A DNA stretch of 54,263 nucleotides from an uncultured Candidatus Saccharibacteria bacterium. GTDB lineage: Bacteria; Patescibacteriota; Dojkabacteria; SC72. Made by a program: the position numbers and the translations under genes. Within the stretch, counting starts at the first letter, position 1; the number at the start of each line of letters is the position of its first letter. The notes beneath the pieces were generated by a model. That model did no database searches, was not told the origin of the DNA, and was given only the letters and a program-made list of their open reading frames with translations. Of this stretch, positions 20,385 to 52,377 are shown one piece after another. Location: the NCBI GenBank assembly GCA_964585985.1, contig CAZPFV010000001.1, positions 29,199 through 83,461 of the forward strand, read 5' to 3'.

Positions 20385-21302
20385 TTACTTCCTATTCCTC
20401 TTATATACCATAGCCGAACTACCAATAAATGCGAGTAATGCTAATAGTCCAAACATCATCATTAAGTTGTTCCCAATTAATTCATCAAATGCCCCCGATG
20501 CTTGTGGAATATTTTCATCAACTACCGCATCTCCATTTACATCACCTGTCGGTGAGTAGGTTACCCTTACTTTCTCATCAAGCTGAATCTGATTACCTGC
20601 AACATCTTTAATATATATAGAGAAAACATTCTTTCCTTCATCTAATGAGATCTCCTCTATTCTAAATTCTCCCTCCTTGTTTGATAACCCATCAAAGCTC
20701 TCTGTTCCTCTCTTTACCTCAATAGTTGCATTTGGCTCTGTTGTTCCTACTAGTATAAAAGTATCTTTGTTTGTTTCTGACCCATACTTCATAGTTACTG
20801 TATTTTGATCTGGTGCAGTCCTATCTACAACAGATATTAATGGCTCAGATTGGGGAGATATATTTCTATTTGGAAATCCCTTAACACCTGCAATTGTAAT
20901 AGCATACTCTCCCTCTTCTTCAACAGGGTAGTCAAAAGTAAATTTGGAATCGTCTTTAACTTTTGTTTCTCCAATTTTTTCTTCTCCCTTGTATATAAAT
21001 ACACTCTCATATCCTTTGGCCATACCATTAATTTTTATGTTGTCTCCACTAGTTATCGTAGTACTTCCCTCAAATGTGGGGGCCTCAAATTCTGGATTTA
21101 ACAAAGGCTCCTCCCTAAATTTTATATATGAAAAGATACCGAAAGAAACTAAAAGAATACCTAATCCGATAAAGACAGACCCAACGATTCTAGAGACTCT
21201 TTCCTGATTTGGAGAGATGGGTTGCCTTATCTCAACCTTGTTCTTCATACTTTCATTTTCTGATATAGAGACAGTTTTTTTATTCTCTTTTTTCTTTGCC
21301 AC
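20385..21302 (-). CDS. surface protein with N-terminal signal anchor, Ig-like domains and a C-terminal hydrophobic helix plus KRNRK tail (possible sorting signal)
   Basis: GTG start. TM helix IVGSVFIGLGILLVSFGIF. Ig-like blocks (DRTAPD..VGTTEPNATIEV..NVFSIYIKDVAGN). C-terminus reads ..NIPQASGAFDELIGNNLMMMFGLLALLAFIGSSAMVYKRNRK. Confidence 0.7.
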   Translation of the reverse strand: MAKKKENKKTVSISENESMKNKVEIRQPISPNQERVSRIVGSVFIGLGILLVSFGIFSYIKFREEPLLNPEFEAPTFEGSTTITSGDNIKINGMAKGYESVFIYKGEEKIGETKVKDDSKFTFDYPVEEEGEYAITIAGVKGFPNRNISPQSEPLISVVDRTAPDQNTVTMKYGSETNKDTFILVGTTEPNATIEVKRGTESFDGLSNKEGEFRIEEISLDEGKNVFSIYIKDVAGNQIQLDEKVRVTYSPTGDVNGDAVVDENIPQASGAFDELIGNNLMMMFGLLALLAFIGSSAMVYKRNRK

Positions 21303-21398: not shown

Positions 21399-22091
21399 AT
21401 GAAAAAACTTTTAAAAATTCTACTAACAACAATACTACTACTACTTGTAGTAGCTCCTGTCGCTTACTTAATAATATATCCTAATTACAATAAATTGGTT
21501 GCCCCAATTAAAAGATTTGATCTAGAAAGGAGTTCTCAAGAGATAACATTTCAGATATTTACACGATTAGCACCTACTAAAGATATGATTTTAGGCACCT
21601 CTATTCAAGATTCTAAATTCCAAAGTATTGAAGAGAGTGTTGATAATACTACCGTCCTTGATCAAAAGATACTTGAAGAGTTAAATACGAAAATTTTAAT
21701 AAACTCCATCGAGGTAGAGGGCGTAGTATATGAAGGATTAGATTCTCACACTATGAACAAAGGTTTCTGGCACTTCCCAGTATCTAGCCTACCTGGACAG
21801 AAGGGGAACAGTGTAATAATTGGGCATCGGTATGCAAAATTACCACCAAACAAAGATACTTTTTTTAATTTAGACAAGGTAAAAGTAGGGGATAGTGTAG
21901 AGGTTGTTCAAAGTAATAATCAATTCACATATATCGTTACCGATGTAAAAGTTGTTGATAAAAATGATATCTCAGTATTACAAGACTACTCTGATTATAG
22001 AATAACGTTAATAACCTGCTCTCCACTATGGACTTCTGAGCAAAGGTTAGTAATCATTGGTAAACTGGACAAATTGTACAAAAACACATAA
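21399..22091 (+). CDS. sortase family transpeptidase
   Basis: N-terminal TM anchor, catalytic His in SVIIGHRYA, Cys in RITLITCSP, and Arg in EQRLVIIGK. Confidence 0.85.
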   Translation: MKKLLKILLTTILLLLVVAPVAYLIIYPNYNKLVAPIKRFDLERSSQEITFQIFTRLAPTKDMILGTSIQDSKFQSIEESVDNTTVLDQKILEELNTKILINSIEVEGVVYEGLDSHTMNKGFWHFPVSSLPGQKGNSVIIGHRYAKLPPNKDTFFNLDKVKVGDSVEVVQSNNQFTYIVTDVKVVDKNDISVLQDYSDYRITLITCSPLWTSEQRLVIIGKLDKLYKNT

Positions 22092-28360: not shown

Positions 28361-28389
28361 TTGAATATCACATTTCTCACATATATAAT
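28361..28389 (+). promoter_or_regulatory. sigma70-like promoter TTGAAT-17 nt-TATAAT; the -10 ends 5 nt before the ATG at 28395
   Basis: TTGAAT 28361-28366, 17-nt spacer, TATAAT 28384-28389, then GGAAT, then ATG. Confidence 0.5.
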
Positions 28390-28394
28390 GGAAT

Positions 28395-29141
28395 ATGAAA
28401 TACAAAAAAGCTAGCCAACTCCTATTAATCTCTACAACGATCCTACTCTTTTTCTCAAGTATCCCCGTACTAAACACATTTGCATATGAAGGGAGTAGTG
28501 AAACAAAAAGAATACAGTGGGGAAATCTAAATACCTTTTCAGACAAAAAGGAATCCGAATCTTACTACATGGTAGACACTGGAGGGCAGTTAGGTAATGA
28601 TGTATACATATCTGATAATTATAAAATAATGGCTGGATTCGGTTTCTACTACAGTCTCATACCATTTAATTTTACAATTGATTCAGAATTAAATTTTAAC
28701 TTTCTCCAACTCAAGCCAAATGTTCCACAGACAGCATCAACAATATTAACAGTAACATCTGGAGCAGCCCATGGCTATGTTGTAACAGCCCAACAAAATC
28801 ATCAACTAGAAAGATTCGGAGAGCCTGGAGTATATATTTTAGATATAGTGGGAGATAATTCGGACATTACCCATCAGCAAGAAGGTATGTGGGAACTAAA
28901 TACTACTCACGGATTTGGATATACAATGGAAAATTTAGTAGGAACAGATGCTGTGTTTACAACAGGCTACAGACAGTTCGCAGATGCTTCAAATTTTGAA
29001 CCTCCCCAGATAATAATTGAAAACTCTGGAGTAACTAGAACCTCAAGTGCTAGAGTAAAGTATAAAATAAATATTGGAGCAATGCAGAAAGCGGGCTTTT
29101 ATACATCAAAAATCGCATATAACTGTACAGGAACATTCTAA
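28395..29141 (+). CDS. secreted beta-rich protein, putative surface-structure subunit (module 1, subunit)
   Basis: Signal peptide MKYKKASQLLLISTTILLFFSSIPVLNTFA. It shares with the 30150 gene the block ..TVTSGAAHGYVVT.. and a terminal strand AGFYTSKIAYNCTGTF ending at the C-terminal Phe. Confidence 0.8.
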   Translation: MKYKKASQLLLISTTILLFFSSIPVLNTFAYEGSSETKRIQWGNLNTFSDKKESESYYMVDTGGQLGNDVYISDNYKIMAGFGFYYSLIPFNFTIDSELNFNFLQLKPNVPQTASTILTVTSGAAHGYVVTAQQNHQLERFGEPGVYILDIVGDNSDITHQQEGMWELNTTHGFGYTMENLVGTDAVFTTGYRQFADASNFEPPQIIIENSGVTRTSSARVKYKINIGAMQKAGFYTSKIAYNCTGTF

Positions 29142-29157
29142 TTAACAATATTAAAAA

Positions 29158-30084
29158 ATGAAACTTAAAAATATTCTTTTAATTACATTTGGAATAATCT
29201 TGTTAGGAGTAAGAGCAACCTTCGCCCAACAAATTGACTTTAATATATACCCAACCATTATTGAAATTGAGAGTGAACCAGGCCAAACCATTAAATATCC
29301 TATTACTATCAAAGGAACTGGAGGAGGACAATACAACCTTAAAGTGTACGGCTTAGAAGTTACAGACAATCAGGGACACTTTGTCTCCAGTAAGCAAGAG
29401 TTTGATCAACTACAATGGATATCCTTTAAACCTGAAAATTTAGAATTTGAAAATTATGAACAGAGAGAAGCCAATCTTTTTGTGACCATACCCAATGAAG
29501 CTTCGCTAGGGGACTACTATTTTACAATCTCCCTTGAAAGAGAGTTTCCAGAGACAGAAGAAGGTCCTGTACTAAGTGGTGCTTTAGAAATACCTTTGCT
29601 AATTACACTCTCTAAAGACGGGTTTCCTAAATTAGAAGCAGAAATTAAAAAATTTAAAACAAAGTATATAGATGTATTTAATCCAATAACCTTTGACATT
29701 GAAGTTAAAAATGCGGGAGCAAGAAAGCTTAAATCATACGGCGAAGTAGAAATAACAAATATTATTTCAAAAGACACATACACAAAAGAATTAATACCTC
29801 AAAATGTATTAGCAGAATCAACAAGAATAGTTGTTGATGAACAAGGTTTTGTACAGGGGAATGATTATGTTTCTTGGATATCTCCTAACCTGATTGGCAT
29901 ATTTAAAGCAAAAGTAAACCTCTATGACAAATACCATCAAGAGGATAATGCAAGTATATTAGCCTCAACTGAAGAGCTCACATTCATCTATTTTGACTTC
30001 TTTCTTCTGCTAGGAATTCTCTTTGCCATTATTCTCATATCTCTGCTTATTTATAATAGAAAGAGAGAAGAGAAAGAGATTTGA
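29158..30084 (+). CDS. signal peptide + two beta-sandwich-like halves + C-terminal TM anchor (module 1, anchor/partner); DUF916/DUF3324-like architecture
   Basis: Paralogue of the 31231 gene (FNIYPTIIEIESEPGQT, QWISF, FDIEVKNAG..GEVEITN, NVLAESTR). C-terminal helix FFLLLGILFAIILISLLIY followed by NRKREEKEI. Confidence 0.8.
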   Translation: MKLKNILLITFGIILLGVRATFAQQIDFNIYPTIIEIESEPGQTIKYPITIKGTGGGQYNLKVYGLEVTDNQGHFVSSKQEFDQLQWISFKPENLEFENYEQREANLFVTIPNEASLGDYYFTISLEREFPETEEGPVLSGALEIPLLITLSKDGFPKLEAEIKKFKTKYIDVFNPITFDIEVKNAGARKLKSYGEVEITNIISKDTYTKELIPQNVLAESTRIVVDEQGFVQGNDYVSWISPNLIGIFKAKVNLYDKYHQEDNASILASTEELTFIYFDFFLLLGILFAIILISLLIYNRKREEKEI

Positions 30085-30149
30085 CATCAGAAGATATTTC
30101 ATATAAATTTAATTTAGTTAAATCAAAAAAATTATTTTATAACAAGAAA

Positions 30150-31220
30150 ATGAAAAGCAAAAAAATCTTTTCCCTTTTGACTGCCACCCTTTTAATCACA
30201 GTACTCGCTTTCTCTAATTACTTTTTTGTAGAAAAGGCATCAGCTGGATTCCTTACCTCCATCTCTGATACTTTAAGCAGAATAGAGCATTATGAAAAAG
30301 CAAACCACACAATTAAATTTGTTACTCCAACAGGAGTAGATCAAAGTACAGATACAATAGTGATAGCATTCGATGATACAGGTGATGCTTATGACCTAGC
30401 AGGGGTTACTTTCTCAGATATTGACCTCGCTATAGATAATGATGGAAATTGTGATGGACCTTGGACAGAGAAAACCTTAGGTGCAACAGCTGCAGCTAAT
30501 ACTTGGGGGGTGAATATTAATACAACAAATGATCAAATTACCTTTACTGCACCAAGTAATGCAACAACAGGTGAGATTGCCGCAGGAAGATGTGTACAGA
30601 TTGAAATAGGTACAAATGCTACCCACGGTGGGACAGGAATAAATCAAATAACGAACCCAAATTCAGGAACATATATCACCTCTATTTCTGGAACTTTTGG
30701 TGATACAGGCAGATTTGCAGTAGCAATACTTGCCTCAGATCAAATTGATATCACAGCACAGGTAGATCCAACATTAACTGTCATTATTAGTGCAACAACA
30801 TGCCCATTAGGAACCTTAACTGAAACCTATATAGAAACATGCAAATATAATGTAACTGTATCTACAAACGCTTCTAATGGCTATGTGTCTACCATAGTTG
30901 CAGATGGTTTACTAAGAAATACAACTGACGATATTAACAATGCCGTAGGATCACTTGTGAGAAGAGGATATGAAGAGTATGGAATAGCTACCTCAAAATC
31001 AGGACAACCAATTCCACAAAACATTGCATGTACTGACCATGATGGAGGAACTTCACAAGCTGCTACCGCACTTCTTACTACACCACAACAGTTTGCAAAT
31101 GCAACCGCACCAATCAGTTCAGACCTAACAACCCTTTGTCACCTAGCTTCCGTTACTGGTGCAACTCCTGCAGGTAGTTATGCTCAAGTTGCAACCATAG
31201 TTGTTACCGCTAATTTTTAA
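30150..31220 (+). CDS. secreted beta-rich protein, putative surface-structure subunit (module 2, subunit)
   Basis: ATG 30150 gives a signal peptide MKSKKIFSLLTATLLITVLAFS (the track's TTG 30081 is unlikely). It contains ..NVTVSTNASNGYVST.. and ends AGSYAQVATIVVTANF. Confidence 0.8.
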   Translation: MKSKKIFSLLTATLLITVLAFSNYFFVEKASAGFLTSISDTLSRIEHYEKANHTIKFVTPTGVDQSTDTIVIAFDDTGDAYDLAGVTFSDIDLAIDNDGNCDGPWTEKTLGATAAANTWGVNINTTNDQITFTAPSNATTGEIAAGRCVQIEIGTNATHGGTGINQITNPNSGTYITSISGTFGDTGRFAVAILASDQIDITAQVDPTLTVIISATTCPLGTLTETYIETCKYNVTVSTNASNGYVSTIVADGLLRNTTDDINNAVGSLVRRGYEEYGIATSKSGQPIPQNIACTDHDGGTSQAATALLTTPQQFANATAPISSDLTTLCHLASVTGATPAGSYAQVATIVVTANF

Positions 31221-31230
31221 TTTAGGATAA

Positions 31231-32274
31231 ATGAAAAACAAAACGCCCCTTTTCATACTTACATTAATTTTTGCAGTTGCAATATCTTTCATCCTGAGTC
31301 CTAAAGAACTACTTGCACAGGCACCCTTAAGCCTCCAAGTTTCACCACCTATTCTTGAAATTGAGATAAATCCAGGGGATACTTACAGTGACTTTTTGAA
31401 ATTTGAGAATTTAAGTACTACAGAAACCCTTACTCTCTACCCCCAGATTCTCTCCTTTAAGGCTAAGGGATTAGAGGGTGCACAGGAATTTATTACTGAT
31501 ACTCAGGAGACTACAAACTTCTCTCTTGCACAGTGGGTAAATATATCAACAGACATAATAGTAATAAAGCCACTAGAAAGAATCGTTTTACCTTTTACAA
31601 TTACAGTGCCTGTAGATGCAGAGCCTGGAGGTAGATATGCAGCAGTCCTACTTGGTAACCAGCCTGTGGTACAAGAGGAAGGAAGTAATGTAGCATTGGG
31701 GGCCCAAACGGGAACCATTATACTTGCTAAAGTTTCTGGTGATGTAACCGAAAAAGCTACTTTAGAGAGCTTTAAAACAGGTAAAGATTCATATCAATAT
31801 CCACCTGTAGATTTTGAAATTACAATACAAAACAGTGGTAATATACATGTTAGACCGCTCGGTAAGATAGAGATAAGTAATATGTTTGGTAAAAGTGTAG
31901 GAGAAATTGATGTAAACGTAGCAAAGGGGAATGTATTACCAGAATCAAGTAGACTGTTTACCCCATCTTGGGAAACAGAGAAGTTTACCATTGGTAAGTT
32001 TACTGCAAAGTTAGATTTAGAGTATGGAGATGAGGAGGTAAGCACTCTCTCAGATACAATCTCTTTCTGGGTATTACCTGTAAGAGAGATTGCAATAGGG
32101 GCGGGTGTTCTACTATTAATTATACTACTTTTTTTCGTGCTTATAAAAATGTACAACAGGATGGTTATCAAAAAAGCCTTAAAAATGAAGGAAGAAGAGA
32201 GACAAAATAGTGTAATAAACAATACTCCTGTAGGGGCTCCTCCAAGCGGTCAAAATCCACCTACTCAAATATAG
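31231..32274 (+). CDS. signal peptide + two beta-sandwich-like halves + C-terminal TM anchor (module 2, anchor/partner)
   Basis: LQVSPPILEIEINPGDT, QWVNI, FEITIQNSG..GKIEISN, NVLPESSR. TM helix IAIGAGVLLLIILLFFVLI followed by a basic then Pro-rich cytoplasmic tail. Confidence 0.8.
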   Translation: MKNKTPLFILTLIFAVAISFILSPKELLAQAPLSLQVSPPILEIEINPGDTYSDFLKFENLSTTETLTLYPQILSFKAKGLEGAQEFITDTQETTNFSLAQWVNISTDIIVIKPLERIVLPFTITVPVDAEPGGRYAAVLLGNQPVVQEEGSNVALGAQTGTIILAKVSGDVTEKATLESFKTGKDSYQYPPVDFEITIQNSGNIHVRPLGKIEISNMFGKSVGEIDVNVAKGNVLPESSRLFTPSWETEKFTIGKFTAKLDLEYGDEEVSTLSDTISFWVLPVREIAIGAGVLLLIILLFFVLIKMYNRMVIKKALKMKEEERQNSVINNTPVGAPPSGQNPPTQI

Positions 32275-32292
32275 TAGAAATGCTCTAAAAAA

Positions 32293-32321
32293 TTGACATA
32301 TTTAGTGCTCCCCCATATACT
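32293..32321 (+). promoter_or_regulatory. sigma70-like promoter TTGACA-17 nt-TATACT for the giant fibre gene
   Basis: Consensus -35 TTGACA 32293-32298, 17-nt spacer, TATACT 32316-32321, in the 76-nt intergenic gap. Confidence 0.55.
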
Positions 32322-32345
32322 ATTAGCATAGGATATTATGCTAAT
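32322..32345 (+). promoter_or_regulatory. perfect 9-bp inverted repeat (ATTAGCATA-ggatat-TATGCTAAT) at the predicted transcription start / 5' UTR
   Basis: Read directly from the sequence. It sits immediately after the -10 and ends 5 nt before ATG 32351. It could be an operator or an mRNA hairpin. Confidence 0.5.
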
Positions 32346-32350
32346 TCTTT

Positions 32351-35300
32351 ATGCCCAAAATTAGAGTAGAAAACAAAAAAAAGATCAGTTTCAAACCGTT
32401 ACATTACTCAATCTTTTTAATTACTTTGGTATTCTCTTTTTGGGGAACATACTTTCTTAATGATTTTAACTGGTCAAAACTCTTAGAAGGGGATGTAATA
32501 AGAGACGACATCTTAGGTGTAACTGCACCCAATATGCTCTCATTCCAAGGTAGGTTAACTAACCGATCTGACACACCAATAACTACACCCACAAATGTAA
32601 CATTTAAGATATATAATGCGCCCGCTGGGGGCACAGAACTTTGGACAGGAAGCTGTACAATTACACCAGACCAAGATGGAATTTTTGATACGCTCTTAGG
32701 AGGTACATGTGGTAGCTCAATCCCGACATCTATTTTTAGTACATATGTCGATACATATTTAGGCATTACAGTCGGTACAGACTCAGAGATGATACCTCGC
32801 CAAAAGATAGTATCTAGTGCATATGCATTAAATGCAGATACACTAGATGGTTTTGATTCTTCACAAACACCTGGCATGAATAATGTTGTTGTCTTAGATC
32901 CCACAGGCAATCTTACATTTGGAACTACATCCCCAGTAATCTCTTCATCAGGCAATTTAATACTTTCTCCTTCGGGAAATGTAGGTATTAATATAAGTAA
33001 TCCAGCATCTTTACTCCATGTCAATGAAGGCAATGTCTTAATCACTGGGGCAGATAAAAAATTAATAGTAGAGCAAAGTAGAGGTTCAGATACAAATTTC
33101 ACCAGCCTTTGGGTTGGCACTACACTTGCTCTCTTTCAATACCCTGATGATATTAAGTTCGGTATTCAAGCAGCTTCTGGACAAAATGATTCAGGTGGGA
33201 GTGGTTATTCGTTAATGTCTTTTGGTAGTACTCGAAACACAATGTTTGGTGATATGTTAGCCTCCCAATCTGACCCAGGTCATAGGGTCACTATCAAAGG
33301 CTCTACTTCAAGTAATGGAAATGGTGCTTTAAGCGTATTGAATTCATCAGACAACAGTTTACTTTTTGTAAGAAATGACGGGAATGTTGGTATAGGAACA
33401 TCAACTCCATCAGCTGCACTTGATGTAGTAGGTGATATTAAGGCTTCTGGCACTATTAGAAATGTAACAGTACATGGAACAGTAGGAACTGCAGCAGCAA
33501 CGGCAGCAAAGGTCGTAAATATACCAAACTATACATTAACAACAGGTGATCTTCTTTCAATTACATTTACATTAGGAAATAGTGTGTCAGCAGCCACTTT
33601 AAATGTTAATTCAACAGGTCCTAACAATATTAGGTTAGGAAACACCAATGTAACAACTACTAATATGACTCTAGCTGCAGGCTCTACAGTACTGATGTAC
33701 TTTGATGGTACATATTTCCAAATAATGGGTTCACAAAGGGTATCAGATTCAAATACCTATGACAGAACATACTGGAATAACGCAATTACTGCCGGTACAG
33801 CCATATATGACTACAAATTAATAATGCAAGCCCCTGATGGTAAGTGGTATCCACTTACTTTAGAAGAGGGAACAAGCACTACTAAGACAGTATCAACTCA
33901 GCCTTTTACAATCAATTCACCTATACTTTACTATGCAACAACCACAAATGTAGCTGCTAATGGTACTTTCAGCAATGTATACAGTGAAATACCGATGGCA
34001 AATCTTAGATATACGGCAAATTCATCATCTTGGACGAATCAAAAACCCATATATCTTAAAGGAACAATAAATAGTAGCGGAAATTTTGTATTAGATAACA
34101 CAACATATGATAGTTTCATAACACAGACATTACCAACATCTGCAGATGGCTTTGTATACATCCTTTTAGGTCAAATGTATTCAACCACTGCAATGAGACT
34201 TTTCCAATATCATCCAATATATGAATACAAAGCAGGGAGAGTACAACCGTATGGAGCGGGATCAACAACATTTGCTGGGTTAACAGATACTCCTAATTCA
34301 TACTTTGGAAATGGCGGTTATCTAGTTAGAGTAAATGCTGGTGCAACTGGTTTAGAATTTGTTGAATCTTCCACCTTTATAGATACAAATGACTATGTAG
34401 ACTCTGTATCATTTAATTCTACAAATGGCGTATTAACCTTAGGTAGAACAGGAATACTACCAGACTTAACTACTAATTTAGATGGTAGATATCTACAATC
34501 CTTCACTGAAGCAGATACTCTGCAAACAGTTACTGACAGGGGTGCAACTACCACTATAGCGTCTACATTTAGTACTAGTATTAGGACTCCATTACTGATA
34601 GGGAACAATTCTTTAGGAATAAGGGCAGGGGCTAATTCAACAACTGCAATACAATTACAAAATGCGTCAGGTACAAGTATACTTAATGTAGATACAACAA
34701 ATAGTAGAGTGGGAATTGGCACTACCTCTCCAGTTACCAAACTACATATTGCTGATGATGGAGGTATCTTAGCCCAAGGTATTTATGAGAGTGGTTGGGA
34801 TGGAGGCTCTCTAGGGCAAGGAAGTAGACTAATGTGGATACCCAGTAAGAGTGCTTTTAGAGCTGGATATGTTTTTGGTACTCGATGGGATACTGCTAAT
34901 ATTGGTGATTTTTCAGTGGCAATGGGACATAGTACCACCGCCAGTGGACAGGCTTCCACCGCAATGGGAAATCAAACTTCCGCCAGTGGAGATAGTTCCA
35001 CAGCAATGGGGCTTGTAACCACCGCCAGTGGAAATTATTCTACAGCAATGGGAGAGGAGACCTTCGCTGGAGGAGAGAGTTCTGTAGCAATGGGGCTTGC
35101 TGCCAACACTAGTGGATATGCTTCCATAGCAATGGGAAATCAAACTTCCGCCAGTGGATATAGTTCCACAGCAATGGGATATGAAAGCACCGCCAGTGGA
35201 GATGCTTCCACAGCAATGGGGCGGAACACCACTGCTCAAGCCTATGCCTCTACAGTGATTGGTAGATACAATGTTATATCAGGCAATACTACTACTTGGA

Positions 35301-38299
35301 CCACTACCGATCCTATTTTTGTGATTGGGATAGGATCAGATCCCTCAAACAGAGCTAATGCTATGACAGTACTAAAAAATGGTAATGTGGGGATAGGGGC
35401 TACTAATCCTCAAGCTATGTTTACAGTTGGTGCTACATCTCAGTTTAGGGTAGATAGTAATGGAAATTTAACAAGAATAAATAATGTACCATATTCATGG
35501 CCTAGTAGTAACACTTCTGGAGTACTTGCAAATAACGGAAGTGGAACATTAACATGGTCCTCATTAGCAAGTTTAGGAGTAGTAACAGGAAGTGGTACAG
35601 GTGGTGGAACGGCAGGTCAGGTGACATGGTGGAATGGTACTTCTATGATAACAGGGAGTAATACTCTTTGGTGGAATGATTCGAGTGGTCGATTAGGAAT
35701 AGGTACTACTAACCCACAGGCATCTTTAGATATTGCAGGGGCAACTTCTACTATATCAAATGCTAGTGGGAATATAACGATTACTCCTGCAAGTAATTTA
35801 ATTGTAAGTCAGGGAAATGTAGGGATAGGTGTCTCTTCACCGACTAATAAATTACAGTTAGCTGCAGCTACAGCAACAACTGGGGGTATTGGATTTGGCA
35901 CAGATGTCATACTGTATCGTTCAGCTGCGAATATATTATCTCTTGGAACAGGTGATACTCTTAATTTAGTATCTGGAGCTCTTAGTATAGCTAGTACAAA
36001 TGTTATTACTTCTGGAAGACTAGTATTAGCAAATAATGGTACAGCTGCTGCTCCTTCTTTCTCATTTGCAAGTGATCCTGATAACGGAATGTATCGTGCA
36101 ACTACAGATGCCTTAGCCTTCTCAACAGCAGGAACAGAGAGAATGAGGATATTAGCAAATGGGAATGTGGGGATTGGTGTTTCTTCACCGACTAATAAAT
36201 TACAGTTAGCTGCAGCTACAACAACAACTGGGGGTATTGGATTTGGCACAGATGTAATACTGTATCGTTCAGCTGCGAATATATTATCTCTTGGAACAGG
36301 GGACACTCTTAATTTAGTATCCGGAGCTCTTAGTATAGCTAGTACAAATGTTATTACTTCCGGAAGACTAGTATTAGGAAATAATGGTACAGCTGCTGCC
36401 CCTTCTTTCTCATTCGCAAGTGATCCTGATAACGGAATGTATCGTGCAACTACAGATGCCTTAGCCTTCTCAACAGCCGCAACAGAGAGAATGAGGATAT
36501 TAGCTAATGGGAATATAAAGATGGGGGAGAATTTGGCTTTAGGAGGTGTACAGCCGACTACAAATGTTGCGCTTAGAGTAGGAGGGAACTCTGCTGTAAT
36601 CGCATTAATAGGCTCAAATAATCCTGCTCCTGCTTCAGGGGCAAATGAGATCTATTCACAAGGGATCGAAGTAGGAACTGGAGATGGAGCTTCAAAGACA
36701 GTCAATAATCTTGCAATAAAGAGTTGGTATGGAATCGGTTTTTGGAATACAGTTGCCGCTGGTGGTAGAACAGATGCTGCAACGATTTGGTTTGATGTGA
36801 GAACTGGCTCTGCATATGCTATGGGAAATTGGAATGCAAATCAGGGTGACTTGGCAGAGGTAATGACTAAGGATGCAAATGAAATTCTTCTCCCAGGTGA
36901 TATTGTTCAGATATCATCTCAACAAAGTAAAAATATTACTATTGCAGATGAATCATATTCTTCAAAAATTATAGGTGTAATTTCAACTGCTCCTGGATTT
37001 GCGATGTCTTCTGACAATGGGGATCCAACGAAAGGCATATTATCAGACGAAGACAATCCAGAGAAGGCATTTGTTGGATTAATAGGCAAAATCCCTGTAA
37101 AAGTTGTTTTAACAAACGGAAATATCAATCAAGGGGCTCCTGTTACAGCCTCTTCTTTACCAGGTTTTGGAATAAGAGCAACGAAAGAGGGAACTATTAT
37201 TGGAAAGGCTTTAGAGTCAACAGAAGAGTGGAATACACAGACTTGCTCTTCTGTGAGTAGTATTAATGTGATTGAATGGCCTGCAGATGATGGCTCTAAC
37301 CCAACTAAACCCTGCTTTAAGTTACCTGATGGTACTATTGTTGGAAAAATAATGGTCTTTGTTAATGTAAGTTGGTATAACCCCTCAGTAACATATACTA
37401 GTACAATAACAAATGATTCCTCTGATGAAAAACTTAAAAATATTACAGGAGAATATACAAGGGGACTAACAGAACTCTTAATGCTAAACCCTATCCTTTA
37501 CTCTTGGAATGAACTCTCCGGAATGGAAATGGAAAATACATACGCTGGCTTTAGTGCACAAAATGTACAACAAGCCATACCAGAAGCAGTAGGACTAGAT
37601 CAAAGAGGATACCTCTCTCTAAATGACAGACCTATACTAGCAGCAACAGTTAATGCAATAAAGGAACAACAAGAAATGATATCAACCCTTAATTCAAGTA
37701 TATCCACACTCTCTGGAACTACTCTTAATTCAACCTCCTCTATAGGGGAGAATATCCGCTTTAATGTAGAGAGTAAAACATTGCAATTTACCAATGACGG
37801 AGAGGTATGGTATGAGTTTGCAGAGAAACAATCAATGATGCTACTAACAAGTAGAGTAGAAAATCTTGAAACAAAAATAGCTAATATCGATACTACAAAC
37901 AGTATTAATACAGAAAACATACTTAAAGTGAAATTAAATAATGAGGGTAATATAGAATTACTAGGAGGAAATATATTAATGGAAGGAAATGGAACATTAA
38001 GCATAAAGAAACTAAAAATGGAAGAGGAATACAGTATAGGGAGTGCTAAATTAACTTCCAATCAATTAAGTATAACTATTAATACAAAAGGTGTTACAAA
38101 AGACTCCAAAGTATTTGTAAATCCAACCTCTGACACATACAACAAGGTGCTATATGTCACTGATATTAAAGAAGGTGAGTCATTCCGTGTAAATATTAAT
38201 GAGGCCATAGACAAAGATATTACCTTCGACTGGTTCATCATTGATAGTAAAAAATCTACAGAGGAAGTAATAGAAATAATTGAAGATGTAAAACCTTAG
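32351..38299 (+). CDS. 1982-aa membrane-anchored fibre/adhesin-like protein with tail-fibre-type modules and an S74-like intramolecular chaperone segment
   Basis: N-terminal TM IFLITLVFSFWGTYFL. Also present: LSFQGRLTN..LGITVG..IPRQKIVSSAYALNADTLDG, recurrent GNVGIG(T/V)xxP motifs, STAMGxxTxASGxx repeats, a 116-aa tandem duplication, and SSDEKLKNI..GFSAQNVQQAIPEAV..VNAIKEQQEMISTL. Confidence 0.85.
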   Translation: MPKIRVENKKKISFKPLHYSIFLITLVFSFWGTYFLNDFNWSKLLEGDVIRDDILGVTAPNMLSFQGRLTNRSDTPITTPTNVTFKIYNAPAGGTELWTGSCTITPDQDGIFDTLLGGTCGSSIPTSIFSTYVDTYLGITVGTDSEMIPRQKIVSSAYALNADTLDGFDSSQTPGMNNVVVLDPTGNLTFGTTSPVISSSGNLILSPSGNVGINISNPASLLHVNEGNVLITGADKKLIVEQSRGSDTNFTSLWVGTTLALFQYPDDIKFGIQAASGQNDSGGSGYSLMSFGSTRNTMFGDMLASQSDPGHRVTIKGSTSSNGNGALSVLNSSDNSLLFVRNDGNVGIGTSTPSAALDVVGDIKASGTIRNVTVHGTVGTAAATAAKVVNIPNYTLTTGDLLSITFTLGNSVSAATLNVNSTGPNNIRLGNTNVTTTNMTLAAGSTVLMYFDGTYFQIMGSQRVSDSNTYDRTYWNNAITAGTAIYDYKLIMQAPDGKWYPLTLEEGTSTTKTVSTQPFTINSPILYYATTTNVAANGTFSNVYSEIPMANLRYTANSSSWTNQKPIYLKGTINSSGNFVLDNTTYDSFITQTLPTSADGFVYILLGQMYSTTAMRLFQYHPIYEYKAGRVQPYGAGSTTFAGLTDTPNSYFGNGGYLVRVNAGATGLEFVESSTFIDTNDYVDSVSFNSTNGVLTLGRTGILPDLTTNLDGRYLQSFTEADTLQTVTDRGATTTIASTFSTSIRTPLLIGNNSLGIRAGANSTTAIQLQNASGTSILNVDTTNSRVGIGTTSPVTKLHIADDGGILAQGIYESGWDGGSLGQGSRLMWIPSKSAFRAGYVFGTRWDTANIGDFSVAMGHSTTASGQASTAMGNQTSASGDSSTAMGLVTTASGNYSTAMGEETFAGGESSVAMGLAANTSGYASIAMGNQTSASGYSSTAMGYESTASGDASTAMGRNTTAQAYASTVIGRYNVISGNTTTWTTTDPIFVIGIGSDPSNRANAMTVLKNGNVGIGATNPQAMFTVGATSQFRVDSNGNLTRINNVPYSWPSSNTSGVLANNGSGTLTWSSLASLGVVTGSGTGGGTAGQVTWWNGTSMITGSNTLWWNDSSGRLGIGTTNPQASLDIAGATSTISNASGNITITPASNLIVSQGNVGIGVSSPTNKLQLAAATATTGGIGFGTDVILYRSAANILSLGTGDTLNLVSGALSIASTNVITSGRLVLANNGTAAAPSFSFASDPDNGMYRATTDALAFSTAGTERMRILANGNVGIGVSSPTNKLQLAAATTTTGGIGFGTDVILYRSAANILSLGTGDTLNLVSGALSIASTNVITSGRLVLGNNGTAAAPSFSFASDPDNGMYRATTDALAFSTAATERMRILANGNIKMGENLALGGVQPTTNVALRVGGNSAVIALIGSNNPAPASGANEIYSQGIEVGTGDGASKTVNNLAIKSWYGIGFWNTVAAGGRTDAATIWFDVRTGSAYAMGNWNANQGDLAEVMTKDANEILLPGDIVQISSQQSKNITIADESYSSKIIGVISTAPGFAMSSDNGDPTKGILSDEDNPEKAFVGLIGKIPVKVVLTNGNINQGAPVTASSLPGFGIRATKEGTIIGKALESTEEWNTQTCSSVSSINVIEWPADDGSNPTKPCFKLPDGTIVGKIMVFVNVSWYNPSVTYTSTITNDSSDEKLKNITGEYTRGLTELLMLNPILYSWNELSGMEMENTYAGFSAQNVQQAIPEAVGLDQRGYLSLNDRPILAATVNAIKEQQEMISTLNSSISTLSGTTLNSTSSIGENIRFNVESKTLQFTNDGEVWYEFAEKQSMMLLTSRVENLETKIANIDTTNSINTENILKVKLNNEGNIELLGGNILMEGNGTLSIKKLKMEEEYSIGSAKLTSNQLSITINTKGVTKDSKVFVNPTSDTYNKVLYVTDIKEGESFRVNINEAIDKDITFDWFIIDSKKSTEEVIEIIEDVKP
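34913..35272 (+). repeat. about 8.5 tandem 42-nt (14-aa) repeats S(T/V/I)AMGxxTxASGxx, YadA-head/Hep_Hag-like
   Basis: SVAMGHSTTASGQA / STAMGNQTSASGDS / STAMGLVTTASGNY / STAMGEETFAGGES / SVAMGLAANTSGYA / SIAMGNQTSASGYS / STAMGYESTASGDA / STAMGRNTTAQAYA / STVIGRYN. Confidence 0.8.
35816..36511 (+). repeat. two tandem 348-nt (116-aa) copies, roughly 95% identical at DNA level, inside the fibre gene
   Basis: Copy 1 is 35816-36163 and copy 2 is 36164-36511 (NVGIGVSSPTNKLQLAAAT..ERMRILANG). I count about 15-17 mismatches by eye. Confidence 0.9.
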
Positions 38300-46178: not shown

Positions 46179-46871
46179 TTAATTATTCTTAAAATTGTCT
46201 AAAATAAGGACTCCACTAAAAGTAAATTTCGCGCCTTCATCCGATTTATTAAAAGATTCTAATTTAATACTTTTTATATTTTCATTTACACCAAACAGAT
46301 ACCATAGCCGAGAAAGCTGTTCTAAATCAGGTGCATTTCCTGTTAACTCAAATCCTAAATTTTCAGATATCTCTATAGTAGAGAAATTGATACCTTGTAC
46401 CTTCCTACCTATTTCTCTAAAGTACTCAATTATTCTTTTATGTGAGAAACTGTCCTCTTCGACTTTTTGATAAAGACGAATCCTTGTTAAGATAATATTA
46501 TTCAAAGATATTGTCTCTGATCTATCATTAATACTTTTCTCTATTTTTCTCAAAGAGTTCTGTTTGCTAGCTAGTTGTGTTTTGGAAATAATGTTAAATC
46601 CTACAATAGCGATTGTGATGGCTACAAATATGATAATCGTGAGAATAGACCCAATATTTAAAGTATTCTTTTTTTTGATTGTACTCTTCTGCTCCTTAGT
46701 TAGTGATGGTATAAGGTTAACACCCTCTGATGCTTGCACTTTTTGAGGCTCAGCAAGGGTTGCGCCCATTGTTGTAGGAGTTGGGGGAGGTGCAATAGGC
46801 CCAGGTGCAGCAGCTGGTTGCTGTTGTGGAGGGATACTATTTACTTGTTGTGGTTGTTGTTGATTATTCAT
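46179..46871 (-). CDS. pilN: type IV pilus assembly protein PilN-like with Q/P-rich N-terminal extension
   Basis: The GVNLIPS motif is followed by TM helix ILTIIIFVAITIAIVGFNII. 8-nt overlap with pilM. The N-terminus MNNQQQPQQVNSIPPQQQPAAAPGPIAPPPTP is low complexity. Confidence 0.7.
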   Translation of the reverse strand: MNNQQQPQQVNSIPPQQQPAAAPGPIAPPPTPTTMGATLAEPQKVQASEGVNLIPSLTKEQKSTIKKKNTLNIGSILTIIIFVAITIAIVGFNIISKTQLASKQNSLRKIEKSINDRSETISLNNIILTRIRLYQKVEEDSFSHKRIIEYFREIGRKVQGINFSTIEISENLGFELTGNAPDLEQLSRLWYLFGVNENIKSIKLESFNKSDEGAKFTFSGVLILDNFKNN

Positions 46872-47892
46872 CTTTTAATGCTAAACCTATTGCTACAGAG
46901 TACGACGCCCCTGTTTTAGCTAGTATACTTTTAAATCTATTATCCACTGCTATATTATTCCATGGATTTGCAATTTGTGCACTAACCCCTAGTGATTTAG
47001 ATACATACTCCGTTAAGCCCGGAAGTAGTGCACCGTCACCATTTAGTAGATATTCCATAGGAGGAGCACTCAAAGTTCTATTTTTATAAAATTCTACTCC
47101 TCGTCTTACTTCAATGATAATAGAGTCAATAATGGGTAGTAGGGCACCGTAAATTTTCCCCTCTACTACTGATGAGACTAGTCCGTAGCTCCTTTTAAAC
47201 TGTTCTGCTCTGTTATAATCAAAATTAAATTTGTTAACTACTGCCTGTGTTAGCGCATCAGAGCCTATCGGTATACTTTGCGAGAATACCAATGCTCCAT
47301 TTGTCATAATACTCATATCTGTACTGTTTGCACCAAAGTCTAACATAACTGCATCTTTTTTCTTCATTGATCTAAACATGGCTCTTCCCATTGCAACAGA
47401 CTCTGTTTCAATCGCAATTAAATCTAGACTTGCGAAATTAGCGACATTCATATAGATCTCTATTATCTTTTTAGGTGCTGCAACAAGTAATACCCTTGGA
47501 GCATTTCTCTCCTGATTAAACCCTATAACAACATAGCTCATTTGCACATCATCAATTGGTACTGGTATATACTGTTTTGCTTCATAATATACTGCCTGTT
47601 TGAGTTCCTCTTGTTTCACTCCAGGAAATTCTAAAAATCTCGTAAATACTGAGAACTCGGGTAGAGCCATCACAACATTTACATTCTTCATTTTAGTGTT
47701 GGCGTAGAGAGTCTTGAGTGCATCCCCCAATTTTTTTTGATCCTGTCTTTCCTCACTGTTGATAACTCCTTTTGGAGTTAATTGCATACCCAAATTTGTC
47801 AATTGTGGGGTATTAAGAATGTTCTTTAGTTCGACAGCTTTCACTGTATGTGTTCCGAAATCTATGCCTACATGATCTGGCAATTTCGCCAT
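46864..47892 (-). CDS. pilM: type IV pilus assembly ATPase-fold protein PilM
   Basis: Actin-like fold motifs VGIDFGTHTVKAVEL, MLDFGANSTDMSI and LNGDGALLPGL. Confidence 0.88.
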   Translation of the reverse strand: MAKLPDHVGIDFGTHTVKAVELKNILNTPQLTNLGMQLTPKGVINSEERQDQKKLGDALKTLYANTKMKNVNVVMALPEFSVFTRFLEFPGVKQEELKQAVYYEAKQYIPVPIDDVQMSYVVIGFNQERNAPRVLLVAAPKKIIEIYMNVANFASLDLIAIETESVAMGRAMFRSMKKKDAVMLDFGANSTDMSIMTNGALVFSQSIPIGSDALTQAVVNKFNFDYNRAEQFKRSYGLVSSVVEGKIYGALLPIIDSIIIEVRRGVEFYKNRTLSAPPMEYLLNGDGALLPGLTEYVSKSLGVSAQIANPWNNIAVDNRFKSILAKTGASYSVAIGLALKDE

Positions 47893-47965
47893 ACTTACTG
47901 GACAGTTAATTTATGACTACTAATATGATAGCAGAAATGATTCAATCTTTGAAATTAGTTAAATA

Positions 47966-50900
47966 CTATGGCTTGATTCCAGCCTCAGCAGAGTGCACTA
48001 CAGTAGTTTTAGCAAAAAATTGCTCTACTAGATACCCATACTTAGGATGTAAATCAATAGCTACAACAGGATATACTAATCTCTCTTCTAGTCTAAGATA
48101 CCTATTTACTACAATGCTTGTACTACTTCCTTTAGATATTAACCCTCCATTAATATATACACCATCTACAATATTTGGAGGTGGGACATTATCAGCTCCA
48201 ACTGTAATTACCCCATCTGCAACTATGAAAGCATTTACTTTCTCATATTCGAAAACATTTGGTCTTTCATGGGTTCCTGCATTTATGACTACACTGCCAC
48301 TTACAACAAAAATACAGCCATTTTGATTACTTAAGGTCGTTGCATTTTGGCTATGTATTGGAGGACTAATTGATAGGTTTCCATCAACAAATATTACAGC
48401 TTTCTTGTCACAACGCAAATTACTATTAACAGTAAGATTTCCTAAGCGATGGAAAGCACAGTAAGTTCTACTGCATGTATTTAAATTTGCTAAAGAGGAG
48501 GAGGTCAAGGTTATCTCCTGTAAAGCATCCCCTAAATTGGTTATCTGATATTCATACTTTTCTTTTAGATCTTTGTACAATGATTCTGTTTGAGAAATTA
48601 CTTGATTTCCATGTCCCGCTAGAGAGTATGAATTTGTCGCTGGAGCATTTACCAAAGCATTACTTCTGTTTGCAAGCATTTCACTCGTTAATCCTCCATT
48701 TTTGCGGAGCATACCATCACTTGCTGATAAAGGATAGGGAGGAAGGGTGCCTTGCCATAATGAGTCGTTTGCTAATGTTAATTCTGCAAAGGAAGGGTTT
48801 CCACTAGAGTAGAGTAAGCCTCCACCAGTTAAGAATCTGTCTGAGAGATTTTCACCCACAGAGAAAGTGGTCATATTACCTGCATAATCAAATACATGTA
48901 AATATATGTTGATGGCTCCTTGAGTATTTTGTCCTACATCTATACTTACAGTTCCACTATTTGTTGAGGAGTTCAGGTGTGCTGGCTGAACTTGAAATGA
49001 CCAATCCCCATTTAGCTTTCCTACTAAATCACCGCTACCACTACTTGGCTCTGGTTGAAAAATACCGTCTCCATTCCTTAATGAAATCGTATGAGAGGGA
49101 GTACCAACTAGATCAATATCTATCTCCTTCCTATTTATATCCGTAGCAGAGGAGTATACATTTCCTACAATTGCATAAAGATTTCTATCATCTCCCGCTT
49201 CCCATTCTACAATTATTTTATTTTCCTGAATTTCTGTGTTTACATTAATTGTTGGACTGACTGAGTCTATTACCCAATTCTTTCCTGAGTCTGTCCAATT
49301 TCTAGCATATGTTTGGTTTTGTGACGGCTTATATCTTAAAGTATTAGCATCTGGCCAGTAGTAAGACAGGTCTGTATAGCCATGTCTTAAGAAGTTGGAC
49401 TGCCAATATCCTCCGTAATTTATTCCTGGATAGTTGTCGTACGGGGTAAAACTAAATTTGTCTAAACCAAGAAGGAAAATATCGTAATTTCCGTCTTGCA
49501 CCTGTCCACCGTAACGAGTTCCAGCACTACTTGAGAATTGCAAACTAAATTCCATATTTAACTCATTATTATTACCTGCTGATACAGAAGGTGGGGCTAG
49601 TACTGACACTCGTACCATTTGTTGGTTATTAGGACTCGCGATATCAAATACTTTGTAGAACGCTGTTGTTGACAAGGTCGCTACTGTCCAATATGAAGTT
49701 GCCCCAGCGTAAGAGGGTACATACGGGATCCAATCAGTTCCGTTTCTTCTTAGCATGAATCCCCAACTATCACGTGCAGAGGATTGAGGAGTAGCACTCG
49801 TTGATAGATTTACTGGAGTGTTGGGCACTCCAGTGTAGTGACTCTCTCTAAACCATACAAACATGCCTTCAATATCGTTTGCGCCATCATTGTCGGTATA
49901 GGTGGCTTTCATCTTTATCGGGAGAAGGGGATCATTTAAGCTTCCAATTCTAGAGTTAGTACTACTACTCCCTGTGTGAGTATGGCTTACAAAATCATAA
50001 CCGTTAGCGGTTGGAGCTGGGTCGTTCACAACTATACTTAATTTGGTTGTAGGCTGGGGTGAAGATGGTTCATAGCAGTCATCTTCACTTTCTAGGGGTT
50101 TCACACCACAATCATTTGTACACTCTCTAAAATCATTTAGAATTAAATTAGCATTCCCTGTATTTGTTAATGGAGATGGACATGATTTCAGGCAAGAACT
50201 ACAGTAGCAACTTCTGTATGTTAAATCACAAAGGGTTGTCCTGTTTGGAGTAGAAGAGCTTCCTCTTCTACAACTGGCTGTACTTGAGTCTGCGACTTTT
50301 CCTTGGTAAACACCTGATTGGTACTGGGCAGATTCGAAATATCCTAGGGTTGAGCATAGTGGAGGAGTACAGGCATTGCAGTAACAATTTATAGAGGTAC
50401 TATTTCTCTTTGGGTTACAATTATTCGTTGAGACACCATTTGTCCTATCACAATACTCTGTTTGAGTAGAATGGAAATCAGAGGTTTTAGGGTACAGTGG
50501 GTCTGTAGGGATACTATTTGTTGTTGATGTTCCACTAGGACAAACTGGAGTAGGAGGGGTACAGTTAATACAACGACACCAACAGTCTTCACTGGAGGTC
50601 CCACAACAGGAATTAGTATGTGTTCTAGATCCACAAGCATATGAGTCTGTTGAATTGGTGTCTCCATTAGAACAACTTCCCCAACCAGCAGAGCAAGTAG
50701 AATTACAAGAACCACCACTACAACCGCAGGAACAAGAGGTATACGAATATGTCCCACCCCAACAACATCCTGAGCCTTGATACATCTTACCGGGACCACA
50801 CAACGCGGATGATGCATAACATGTACCATTCTCCAAGCAATCACTGCTACACGCACTTCTACAACCAGTAGGCCAACATCCACCTGGTGTAAGTTCGCAA

Positions 50901-52320: not shown

Positions 52321-52377
52321 AATCGATTAGTAGTTATATACACATAATATTAATTGAACCGTAATTTTATATCACTT

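Follow-up and report, generated by a model that had tools for sequence, protein, structure and literature searches.

Bacteria of the Candidate Phyla Radiation (CPR), which may account for a large share of bacterial diversity, lead a host-attached lifestyle in which attachment itself is little understood. The closest described relative of the locus analyzed here is the Pam pilus system, two filaments of which were solved by cryo-electron microscopy (cryo-EM) in Candidatus Mycosynbacter amalyticus (Troman et al., bioRxiv 10.64898/2026.03.03.709456). In that system, each polymerizing pilin donates its linker strand to the subunit that follows, and PamT, which has a single domain, is the putative tip. 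The chaperones PamC and PamD are of the PapD/FimC type and bear a C-terminal transmembrane (TM) helix, PamR serves as an RbmA-like anchor in the membrane, no usher is involved, and a tail-fiber-like protein, which is central and consistently co-localized, and the ATP synthase are conserved neighbors of the pam genes (bioRxiv 10.64898/2026.03.03.709456). Here, we describe five genes, P1 to P5, in a stretch of 54,263 nucleotides (hereafter the window) from an uncultured bacterium deposited as Candidatus Saccharibacteria and placed by GTDB in the Dojkabacteria (GCA_964585985.1, contig CAZPFV010000001.1, positions 29,199 to 83,461), and we consider it likely that they form a minimal, divergent Pam-type pilus operon of a Dojkabacteria-like CPR genome, together with the gene of a large tail-fiber-like adhesin.

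Another described system that bears on this locus is the WxL (Csc) cluster of Firmicutes, in which a small and a large WxL protein are accompanied by a WxL-interacting protein, WxLIP, a strand of which is predicted to complete the WxL β-sandwich (Hassan et al. 2023, PMC10599100); this predicted strand insertion is donor-strand complementation in all but name. A first-pass annotation made from the sequence had proposed a dedicated cell-surface assembly/attachment locus in a CPR-type genome, which our results support, and had held the system to be undescribed, which has to be withdrawn in favor of the Pam pilus system (bioRxiv 10.64898/2026.03.03.709456), represented by the NCBIfam models NF058579 and NF058581. 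The system having already been described in 2026, the locus is an unusually reduced Pam relative in a lineage that the preprint does not name. What appears to go beyond the preprint is the homology of Pam-type chaperones with WxLIP (DUF916/DUF3324) proteins, the near-universal pairing of pilin and chaperone genes, and a linkage of ~90% measured from the fiber side. With regard to the first of these points, DUF916, DUF3324, and WxL are unmentioned in the Pam preprint (bioRxiv 10.64898/2026.03.03.709456) and the link was not found in the searchable literature, although the publication accompanying PDB entries 9i1y and 9i25 may address it.

Pam-type pilins and their WxLIP-related partners

The five genes all lie on the + strand and, in the list of open reading frames (ORFs) of the window, are separated by 16, 65, 10, and 76 nt, in agreement with the co-directional arrangement, 10–76 nt apart, reported by the first-pass annotation (coordinates in table 1; the mechanical ORF of P3 begins at a TTG at 30081, and the ATG start was used instead). 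The signal peptides that it had assigned are equally apparent, the N-termini of P1, P2, P3, and P4 starting with a basic stretch that leads into a hydrophobic segment of signal-peptide type. A Pfam search returned zero matches for these four proteins, P5 alone among the five having matches over the cut-off. Two models in NCBIfam release 20 (June 2026) bear the name of the CPR “Pam pilus system” and derive from its preprint (bioRxiv 10.64898/2026.03.03.709456), namely NF058579 (PamT) and NF058581 (CPR_Pam_pilin_C). The latter matches the C-terminal part of both P1 (E = 8.8e-8, 32.4 bits; residues 101–248 on profile positions 6–148 of 148) and P3 (E = 2.2e-9, 37.5 bits; residues 215–356 on positions 3–148 of 148), nearly end to end in each case, and the PamT model matches both weakly, P1 with an alignment spanning the whole protein (E = 1.1e-3, 18.4 bits) and P3 at 26.4 bits. 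Because 47 of the 55 P3 homologs retrieved from many CPR lineages in turn match NF058581 (best 2.4e-45), the homology of P1 and P3 to Pam pilins is settled by transitivity. In addition, short pilins encoded just 5' of a long pilin in other genomes give full-length PamT matches, the best of which reaches 162 bits (1.6e-47) and also scores 135.9 bits on NF058581, over its cut-off.

The relationship between P1 and P3, for which the first-pass annotation had invoked a common central block and a common terminal strand, escapes BLASTP, which finds nothing between the two, and is evident when family profiles are compared with hhalign (Prob 98.6%, E = 1.2e-15): the profile A4, built from P1 together with nine positional equivalents, aligns with that of the P3 family (A2) such that P1 91–248 is paired with P3 209–356, and both of the motif pairs then singled out, TVTSGAAHGYVVT/TVSTNASNGYVST and AGFYTSKIAYNCTGTF/AGSYAQVATIVVTANF, fall in aligned columns. 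Among the 139 pilin homologs whose match reaches the end of the profile, the last residue is F in 104 and Y in 25, and a terminal aromatic residue can on this count be taken as a hallmark of the pilin family. P1, with its single domain, is a candidate PamT-like tip or initiator subunit, as judged from its sequence. The AlphaFold2 (AF2) model of P3, built from 55 sequences (predicted local distance difference test, pLDDT, 94.7), displays a signal helix, a first β domain, an isolated short strand at 209–213, and a second β domain. Across the P3 family, the most conserved 12-residue window is the linker between the two domains (DQIDITAQVDPT, residues 197–208); other strongly conserved windows include 237–248, which is the central block noted in the first pass, and 333–344, where the C-terminal strand begins. 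Searches of PDB sequences with P1, P3, and the P3-family profile yielded chance matches only, in a copy of the PDB that is without the Pam pilin structures. The family is large, an exhaustive HMMER search recovering 5,530 representatives of 50% identity clusters at E ≤ 1e-3 and 3,232 at E ≤ 1e-10.

Some proteins carry the Pam pilin unit at the C-terminus, after a long N-terminal extension (L030:5435-8776, 1113 aa; L044:1-2844, 947 aa; L024:1-2412, 803 aa; and likewise the proteins P0204, 1115 aa, P0228, 1098 aa, and P0172, 3077 aa), and nine stretches resembling the pilin N-terminal domain were seen in one 3077-aa protein. These long-extension pilins parallel the “large WxL” proteins, in which N-terminal binding domains precede a C-terminal WxL domain.

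P2 and P4, called paralogs in the first pass, align by BLASTP over 281 aa (E = 5e-12, 24% identity), and a basic tail follows the C-terminal TM segment of each. P2 is matched by the chaperone profile A1 at 2e-70, being itself a member of A1. The two β-sandwich halves that had been foreseen for these proteins are visible in the AF2 model of P4 (pLDDT 87.9), which comprises a signal helix, β-sandwiches at 35–168 and 176–281, and a long C-terminal helix at 284–330. When this model was compared with the PDB by Foldseek, the top matches were the Enterococcus faecium WxLIP 9i1y_A (E = 5.8e-11) and 9i25_C, in complex with a long WxL protein (1.8e-10). YadV, CsuC, DraB, CfaA, Caf1M, PapD, FimC, and CupB2 were also retrieved (E from 8e-9 to 1e-6, target TM-score 0.5–0.56); RbmA is in the list as well, and unrelated proteins with two immunoglobulin-like (Ig) domains (CEP192 SPD-2, ciliary central-apparatus proteins, Vpr) are interspersed at lower TM-scores. 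The resemblance of P2 and P4 to WxLIP is a matter of homology and goes beyond a shared fold, because Pfam PF06030 (WxLIP_PGBD, formerly DUF916) matches 16 of 32 members of the P4 family (best 1.2e-10, P4 itself being unmatched), because the P4-family profile matches EfmWxLIP1 among PDB sequences (E = 4.3e-7), and because hhalign aligns the P4 family with four Firmicutes WxLIPs, taken from plasmids, over 246 columns that cover both domains (Prob 99.0%, E = 2.1e-18). The proteins that had been described as anchors are more plausibly chaperones of assembly, tethered to the membrane, than mere passive anchors.

For the pilins themselves, no such relation to WxL proteins was detected at the level of sequence: the Pfam WxL domain was found in none of 55 P3-family members, five small Firmicutes WxL proteins, also from plasmids, aligned with the two pilin families by hhalign at a Prob of 0.5% and 1.6%, and the WxL profile matched nothing among PDB sequences. 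As the first-pass annotation had stated for this cluster, P1–P5 lack a conserved WxL motif (a single incidental WEL occurs in P1), no LPXTG protein is found, and no usher-sized gene lies between or beside them.

The fiber gene and the conservation of the locus

The fiber-like character earlier attributed to P5 is borne out by its Pfam matches, namely YadA_head repeats (E = 1.2e-18) and Peptidase_S74 (E = 9e-7), and by matches to phage tail-fiber PHROGs, among them phrog_33119 (long tail fiber distal subunit) at residues 1720–1785. Its N-terminal domain is 56% identical to that of a Dojkabacteria ortholog and 44% identical to that of the fiber of a differently labelled CPR-type genome, and is weakly matched by NCBIfam Bdello_MAT_N (E = 0.02). 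Compared as a whole with the fiber encoded at the same position in another Dojkabacteria genome, P5 is a mosaic, with 56% identity over the N-terminal ~200 aa, 40% over the C-terminal ~290 aa, and a divergent center; orthologs in this position measure 1371 aa in one locus (L001) and at least 2927 aa in another (L008), and the fibers of other lineages reach ~3,000–3,660 aa. Such conserved ends around a variable center would be the signature of a receptor-binding fiber, and the 348-bp tandem duplication in the central part of the gene suggests a recent change in the length of the fiber shaft.

The segment at residues ~18–38 of P5 is moderately hydrophobic (under 1.6 on the Kyte–Doolittle scale over 19 residues). 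In other lineages, the fibers have an extra, presumably cytoplasmic, N-terminal segment of ~190 aa before the hydrophobic segment (L147:9434-16816, L089:9386-18550), which implies a membrane anchor with the N-terminus inside and the C-terminus outside; with such an anchor the fiber would have its own attachment to the cell and not be borne by the pilus. By eye, this ~190-aa segment resembles a phage-integrase SAM-like (core-binding) domain. P5 is unmatched by the pilin profile.

The gene order is found again in other Dojkabacteria genomes, among them a metagenome-assembled genome (MAG), GCA_050950165.1, where five genes in identical order encode proteins of 253, 316, 351, 335, and 1371 aa, the last with Gp34_trimer and Peptidase_S74 domains. 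To survey the pilin side more widely, GTDB species genomes were scanned with an alignment of 21 closer pilin sequences, which gave 68 loci in many CPR groups (Dojka-, Woyke-, Berkel-, Nomura-, Uhr-, Colwell-, Kerfeld-, Roizman-, and Moraniibacteria, WWE3, Parcubacteria, and Saccharibacteria). All ORFs of the pilin-side loci were searched with profile hidden Markov models (HMMs) of the pilin (A2) and the chaperone (A1), as well as with P5, and 70 non-duplicate loci were counted. Pilin and chaperone genes are both present in 64 of them, and a pilin gene is immediately followed by a chaperone gene in 62, with 87 such pairs among 156 pilin genes; the subunit-then-anchor pairing remarked upon in the first pass is real and conserved. 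A P5 homolog is found in 12 of the 70 pilin-centered loci.

From the fiber side, a scan of metagenome contigs with the fiber N-domain (A7), of which the best 80 of 492 relatives were kept, supersedes an earlier word-index search with the same domain that had given 6 relatives. Same-strand pilin/chaperone genes lie upstream of the fiber gene in 42 of the 47 loci (89%) that have at least 4 kb of upstream sequence, usually in the order short pilin, chaperone, long pilin, chaperone, ~2 kb, fiber. The synteny check proposed in the first pass returned a clear co-occurrence of the genes with one another and with the fiber gene, and this linkage of a mosaic fiber to the module in ~90% of informative fiber-centered loci points to a two-part host-recognition apparatus. 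The ~2-kb gap mostly holds a conserved gene of ~300 aa, whose product combines two β domains with a signal peptide and a C-terminal TM helix and which was seen in 54 fiber-side and 9 genome-side loci (e.g. L089:6850-7773 on the + strand, L147:7573-8523 on the − strand). It has no homolog in the window or in the Dojkabacteria loci and no NCBIfam match; it is a candidate PamR equivalent.

Some Dojkabacteria possess a lone long-pilin and chaperone pair, without short pilin or fiber (L160:6925-9002, L012:5992-8069), which means that the five-gene form is not universal even inside the class. In many CPR lineages, giant ORFs (2,000–3,300 aa; table 1) abut same-strand pilin–chaperone clusters; they have essentially no Pfam domains, are not P5 homologs by phmmer, and may represent alternative adhesins. 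We also looked at one locus (L004) as a possible canonical pam operon, in which a chaperone homolog adjoins the ATP synthase operon, and set it aside, its proteins being unmatched by the NCBIfam Pam models. A number of MAGs bearing typical CPR pilin–chaperone clusters are titled “uncultured Gammaproteobacteria”, “Pseudomonadales”, “Nanoarchaeia archaeon”, or “Bacteroidia” (L014, L017, L021, L022, L024–L027, L032, and others), which are probably placeholder or wrong taxonomic labels.

A probable minimal Pam-type pilus and the alternatives to it

On the strength of the homology, domain architecture, gene order, and conserved linkage demonstrated above, we infer how the subunits may polymerize, in which order they may be arranged, and how they may be anchored and serve in host attachment. 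By homology to the Pam system of Ca. Mycosynbacter amalyticus, P1–P4 would be exported by Sec, and P2 and P4 would remain in the cytoplasmic membrane through their C-terminal helix, from where their PapD/WxLIP-like two-domain ectodomain would cap the incomplete Ig-like C-terminal domain of the fresh cognate pilin by donor-strand complementation. The interdomain linker of an incoming P3 would then push out the chaperone strand (donor-strand exchange), and the outcome, with neither usher nor sortase, would be a linear P3 filament that carries the linker-less, PamT-like P1 at its distal tip. Because the locus has no PamR-like terminator or anchor gene, the base may be kept by a chaperone, in the sense that the proximal subunit may stay on the membrane-anchored chaperone. 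P5 would be a separately membrane-anchored fiber, with an N-module that is conserved, a center (shaft or receptor-binding region) that varies fast, and, at the C-terminus, an S74 domain of the folding-chaperone type, and pilus and fiber would together probably constitute the host-contact apparatus of an episymbiont. If so, the Pam pilus, so far known from one cultivated Saccharimonadia parasite, would be present in Dojkabacteria in a pared-down form whose one tip subunit, one shaft subunit, and two chaperones, with no dedicated anchor, would amount to a natural minimal gene set for reconstitution.

Several observations weigh against this interpretation. The scores of P1 and P3 are all under the curated NCBIfam cut-offs (55 bits for NF058581; 240 bits for NF058579, the PamT equivalog), which makes them divergent members that the NCBI pipeline would leave unnamed. 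Foldseek, when given the full P3 model, returned merely generic two-Ig adhesins of low TM-score (MSCRAMMs, integrins, PapG, CfaE), a result that is uninformative because inter-domain geometry dominates the comparison. A PamR-like gene is absent from the P1–P5 locus, and the window contains no ATP synthase to which the cluster could be adjacent. Finally, to our knowledge, filaments have never been seen by anyone on Dojkabacteria.

The same genes could alternatively specify a non-filamentous surface complex of the WxL-cluster kind, in which the anchors P2 and P4 each permanently hold one subunit, small P1 or large P3, by strand insertion, and no polymer is made. The true homology of P2 and P4 with WxLIP over both domains, the rank of WxLIP as their best structural match, a make-up of small subunit, large subunit, and anchor that mirrors the Firmicutes WxL clusters, and the 1:1 ratio of pilin to chaperone genes at the locus all speak for such a complex. 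We nevertheless regard it as unlikely, given that P1 and P3 are members of the Pam pilin family, for which cryo-EM has shown filaments, that the segment most conserved in P3 is the very linker that acts as donor strand in Pam pili, that neither a WxL domain nor a WxL motif is detectable, and that a 1:1 holdfast leaves unexplained why the short subunit should be linker-less, as presumed for P1, and the long one linker-bearing. It is less likely still that P1–P4 serve the fiber, as a pilin–chaperone stalk or base that carries or positions P5 within one composite organelle. The upstream pilin/chaperone genes of 42 of 47 fiber loci, the position of the fiber gene directly 3' in Dojkabacteria, and a fiber N-domain that is conserved where the remainder varies would suit this idea, but a P5 homolog accompanies the pilins in merely 12 of 70 pilin-centered loci, lone pilin–chaperone pairs exist in some Dojkabacteria, P5 has a candidate N-terminal hydrophobic anchor of its own, which in the fibers of other lineages follows an extra, apparently cytoplasmic domain, a strong promoter-like site occupies the P4–P5 gap, and the pilin profile misses P5.

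The phage-like traits of P5, that is, its PHROG tail-fiber matches and its S74 domain, raise the question of a prophage or phage-derived module, in which P5 would be a phage tail fiber and P1–P4 phage accessory or unrelated genes. We deem this very improbable: further phage genes are lacking, housekeeping genes make up the flanks, the composition is like that of the rest of the window, and the arrangement is chromosomal in many CPR genomes, so that flanks, composition, and chromosomal recurrence in CPR effectively refute a prophage origin of the cluster. As for a sortase-assembled pilus of the Gram-positive type, which a sortase gene situated ~6 kb upstream (21399-22091) beside a Big_6 protein might evoke, its probability is next to nil: none of P1–P5 combines an LPXTG-type signal with a TM segment and a basic tail, the pilins end in a free aromatic residue, and unrelated housekeeping genes separate the distant sortase from the cluster; the missing sorting signals, the free aromatic C-termini, and the distance of the sortase effectively rule it out. 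The Pam-type operon with its adjoining fiber gene is the reading that we retain as likely for the features listed in table 1.

Table 1. Features of the P1–P5 locus (positions in the window) and giant ORFs next to pilin–chaperone clusters of other CPR lineages
Feature	Position	Strand	Description
Promoter-like site	28361..28389	+	TTGAAT-17-TATAAT just 5' of P1; 10/12 consensus positions; weak evidence
P1	28395..29141	+	248 aa; short single-domain pilin; signal peptide and C-terminal Pam pilin domain, aa 101-248
P2	29158..30084	+	308 aa; membrane-anchored chaperone-like protein (PamC/D-like, WxLIP homolog); signal peptide; TM aa 281-299
P3	30150..31220	+	356 aa counted from ATG; two-domain major pilin, PamB-sized; signal peptide, six Cys
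P3 N-terminal β-sandwich	aa ~33-195	+	AF2 strands 36-194
P3 conserved linker	30738-30773, aa 197-208	+	DQIDITAQVDPT; top-conserved 12-mer
P3 C-terminal domain	aa 215-356	+	incomplete-Ig-type; AF2 strands 228-354
P4	31231..32274	+	347 aa; membrane-anchored chaperone-like protein (PamC/D-like, WxLIP homolog); signal peptide; TM aa 287-305
Promoter-like site	32293..32321	+	TTGACA-17-TATACT in the P4–P5 gap (76 nt); 11/12; top sigma-70-like match of the region; pattern match only
P5	32351..38299	+	1982 aa; tail-fiber-like adhesin, presumably membrane-anchored and trimeric
P5 N-terminal hydrophobic segment	32402..32464, aa ~18-38	+	K/R-rich stretch before it; candidate signal-anchor, tentative
P5 conserved N-domain	32483..32860, aa ~45-170	+	LSFQGRLT...PRQ.I.S..YALN.DTLDG
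42/84-bp repeat array in P5	34919..35220	+	codes for YadA-head-type repeats
348-bp tandem duplication in P5	35816..36514	+	2.0 copies, 95% identical; 116-aa block twice in translation
P5 Peptidase_S74 domain	37421..37591, aa 1691-1747	+	endosialidase-type intramolecular chaperone domain; 29.5 bits vs cut-off 22
Giant ORFs (other lineages)	L015:3821-9931, L018:1866-7892, L019:963-9878, L022:1-9921, L033:1-7731, L041:4043-10405, L043:2-8674		same-strand neighbors of pilin–chaperone clusters

Within the window, the HMM search with the pilin A2 and chaperone A1 profiles found no pilin or chaperone ORFs beyond P1–P4, and no phage genes were found apart from the fiber-type matches of P5. The genes that flank the cluster encode housekeeping functions (rRNA adenine dimethylase, Ham1, Dus, a ClpB/ClpC-type AAA+ ATPase with AAA_2 and ClpB_D2-small domains, NusB, and RNase III, and further aminoacyl-tRNA synthetases, MutS, a class A penicillin-binding protein, trigger factor, and ClpP), the GC content is low throughout (32–40%), the cluster being similar in composition to its surroundings, and P3 and P4 have their nearest named relatives in Candidatus Dojkabacteria. 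The promoter-like site between P4 and P5 hints that the fiber gene may have its own promoter and be transcribed separately. Promoter and terminator scans of the region returned sites no more commonly than in shuffled sequences, and operon structure is accordingly suggested rather than established.

Two other surface-related regions are present in the window. The aforementioned sortase gene (+ strand) adjoins a divergent gene for a protein with Big_6/Big_13 Ig domains (20385-21302, − strand), and the two may represent a separate sortase-anchored surface protein, unlinked to the P1–P5 cluster. Downstream by ~8.5 kb, the − strand region 46864-54234 includes the type IV pilus gene PilM (46864-47892), directly 3' of three large − strand ORFs (1020, 435, and 618 aa) without a Pfam match, which may be a second, unrelated filament locus.

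Comparison with known systems

With the Pam system, the locus shares a homologous pilin C-terminal domain, the N-terminal domain–linker–C-terminal domain layout of P3 with its conserved linker, a candidate single-domain PamT-like subunit in P1, PapD-like chaperones with a C-terminal TM helix, the lack of an usher, a tail-fiber-like neighbor, and a restriction to CPR bacteria. PamA and PamB show the same pattern of linker conservation as P3, and PamB has three Cys pairs (bioRxiv 10.64898/2026.03.03.709456), to be compared with the six Cys of P3. The locus differs from the described system in having one major pilin instead of PamA, PamB, and PamE, and a chaperone of its own for each pilin; in being without a PamR-like gene; in its neighborhood, the ATP synthase, CorB, and the major facilitator superfamily transporter not being neighbors and the fiber gene standing directly in the gene string; in sequences that stay under the NCBIfam cut-offs; and in its host, which is of the Dojkabacteria when the described systems are from Saccharimonadia and Microgenomatia.

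The comparison with WxL/Csc clusters, to which the first-pass annotation had likened the locus, holds for one half of the genes: P2 and P4 are truly homologous to WxLIP (DUF916, DUF3324, and a TM helix) over both β-sandwiches and have the C-terminal TM helix in common with it, whereas P1 and P3 are not detectably WxL-domain proteins. Both systems combine a small and a large subunit with an anchor, the subunit genes preceding that of the anchor, and in both an anchor strand completes the β-sandwich of the subunit, as may be presumed for P2 and P4. In a Bacillus tropicus plasmid, for instance, the WxL cluster (L078:2735-5936) reads LPXTG protein, WxL, WxL, WxL, WxLIP, again with the subunits before the anchor. 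In contrast to the WxL clusters, the subunits here are Pam pilins with neither a detectable WxL-domain similarity nor a dual WxL motif, and a small LPXTG protein is lacking; moreover, the WxL proteins in the literature are bound to peptidoglycan and are not described as forming filaments.

From an evolutionary perspective, it is conceivable, and we put it forward tentatively as an idea with somewhat less than even chances, that a single ancient, chaperone-only, usher-free system of single-membrane bacteria gave rise both to the Pam pili of CPR bacteria and to the WxL/Csc clusters of Firmicutes. Its core would be a membrane-tethered PapD-like chaperone (PamC/D or WxLIP) that completes an incomplete β-sandwich subunit, the logic of a small and a large subunit would be ancestral, and in CPR bacteria it would also be coupled genetically to a fast-evolving tail-fiber-like host-recognition protein. 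If this were true, WxL proteins may also exchange strands and form short fibers, and the chaperone fold of chaperone–usher systems would be of deep monoderm origin. The WxLIP homology in any case connects a surface-protein cluster that has long been a puzzle in lactic acid bacteria and enterococci with a new system of CPR bacteria, and points to experiments that could be done in genetically tractable organisms.

The likeness to chaperone–usher subunits also noted in the first pass stands for the PapD/CsuC/Caf1M-like fold of P4 and for a pilin family known for donor-strand exchange, but not for the strand then designated, the donated strand in solved Pam pili being the linker and not the C-terminal strand that ends in F. 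In common with the chaperone–usher systems (Pap/Fim, archaic Csu, and Caf1), the locus has, at the level of the fold, the two-domain chaperone of P4, an incomplete Ig-type subunit domain with a conserved C-terminal strand (Gly, alternating hydrophobics, and a terminal aromatic), and, as presumed for P1–P4, a donor-strand logic of assembly. Unlike in these systems, usher and outer membrane are both lacking and the chaperone is tethered to the membrane instead of being soluble in the periplasm; in Pam pili, moreover, an internal linker and not an N-terminal extension provides the donor strand, each subunit carries an additional N-terminal domain, and the filament is extended and uncoiled. P5, for its part, resembles the S74-type tail fibers and tailspikes of phages and the mosaic adhesive trimer (MAT) fibers of Bdellovibrio by its S74 domain, its tail-fiber PHROG matches, its conserved ends and mosaic center, and its weak Bdello_MAT_N match, and departs from them as a chromosomal, cellular protein with a candidate N-terminal hydrophobic anchor and YadA-head repeats, whose gene is coupled to a pilus operon.

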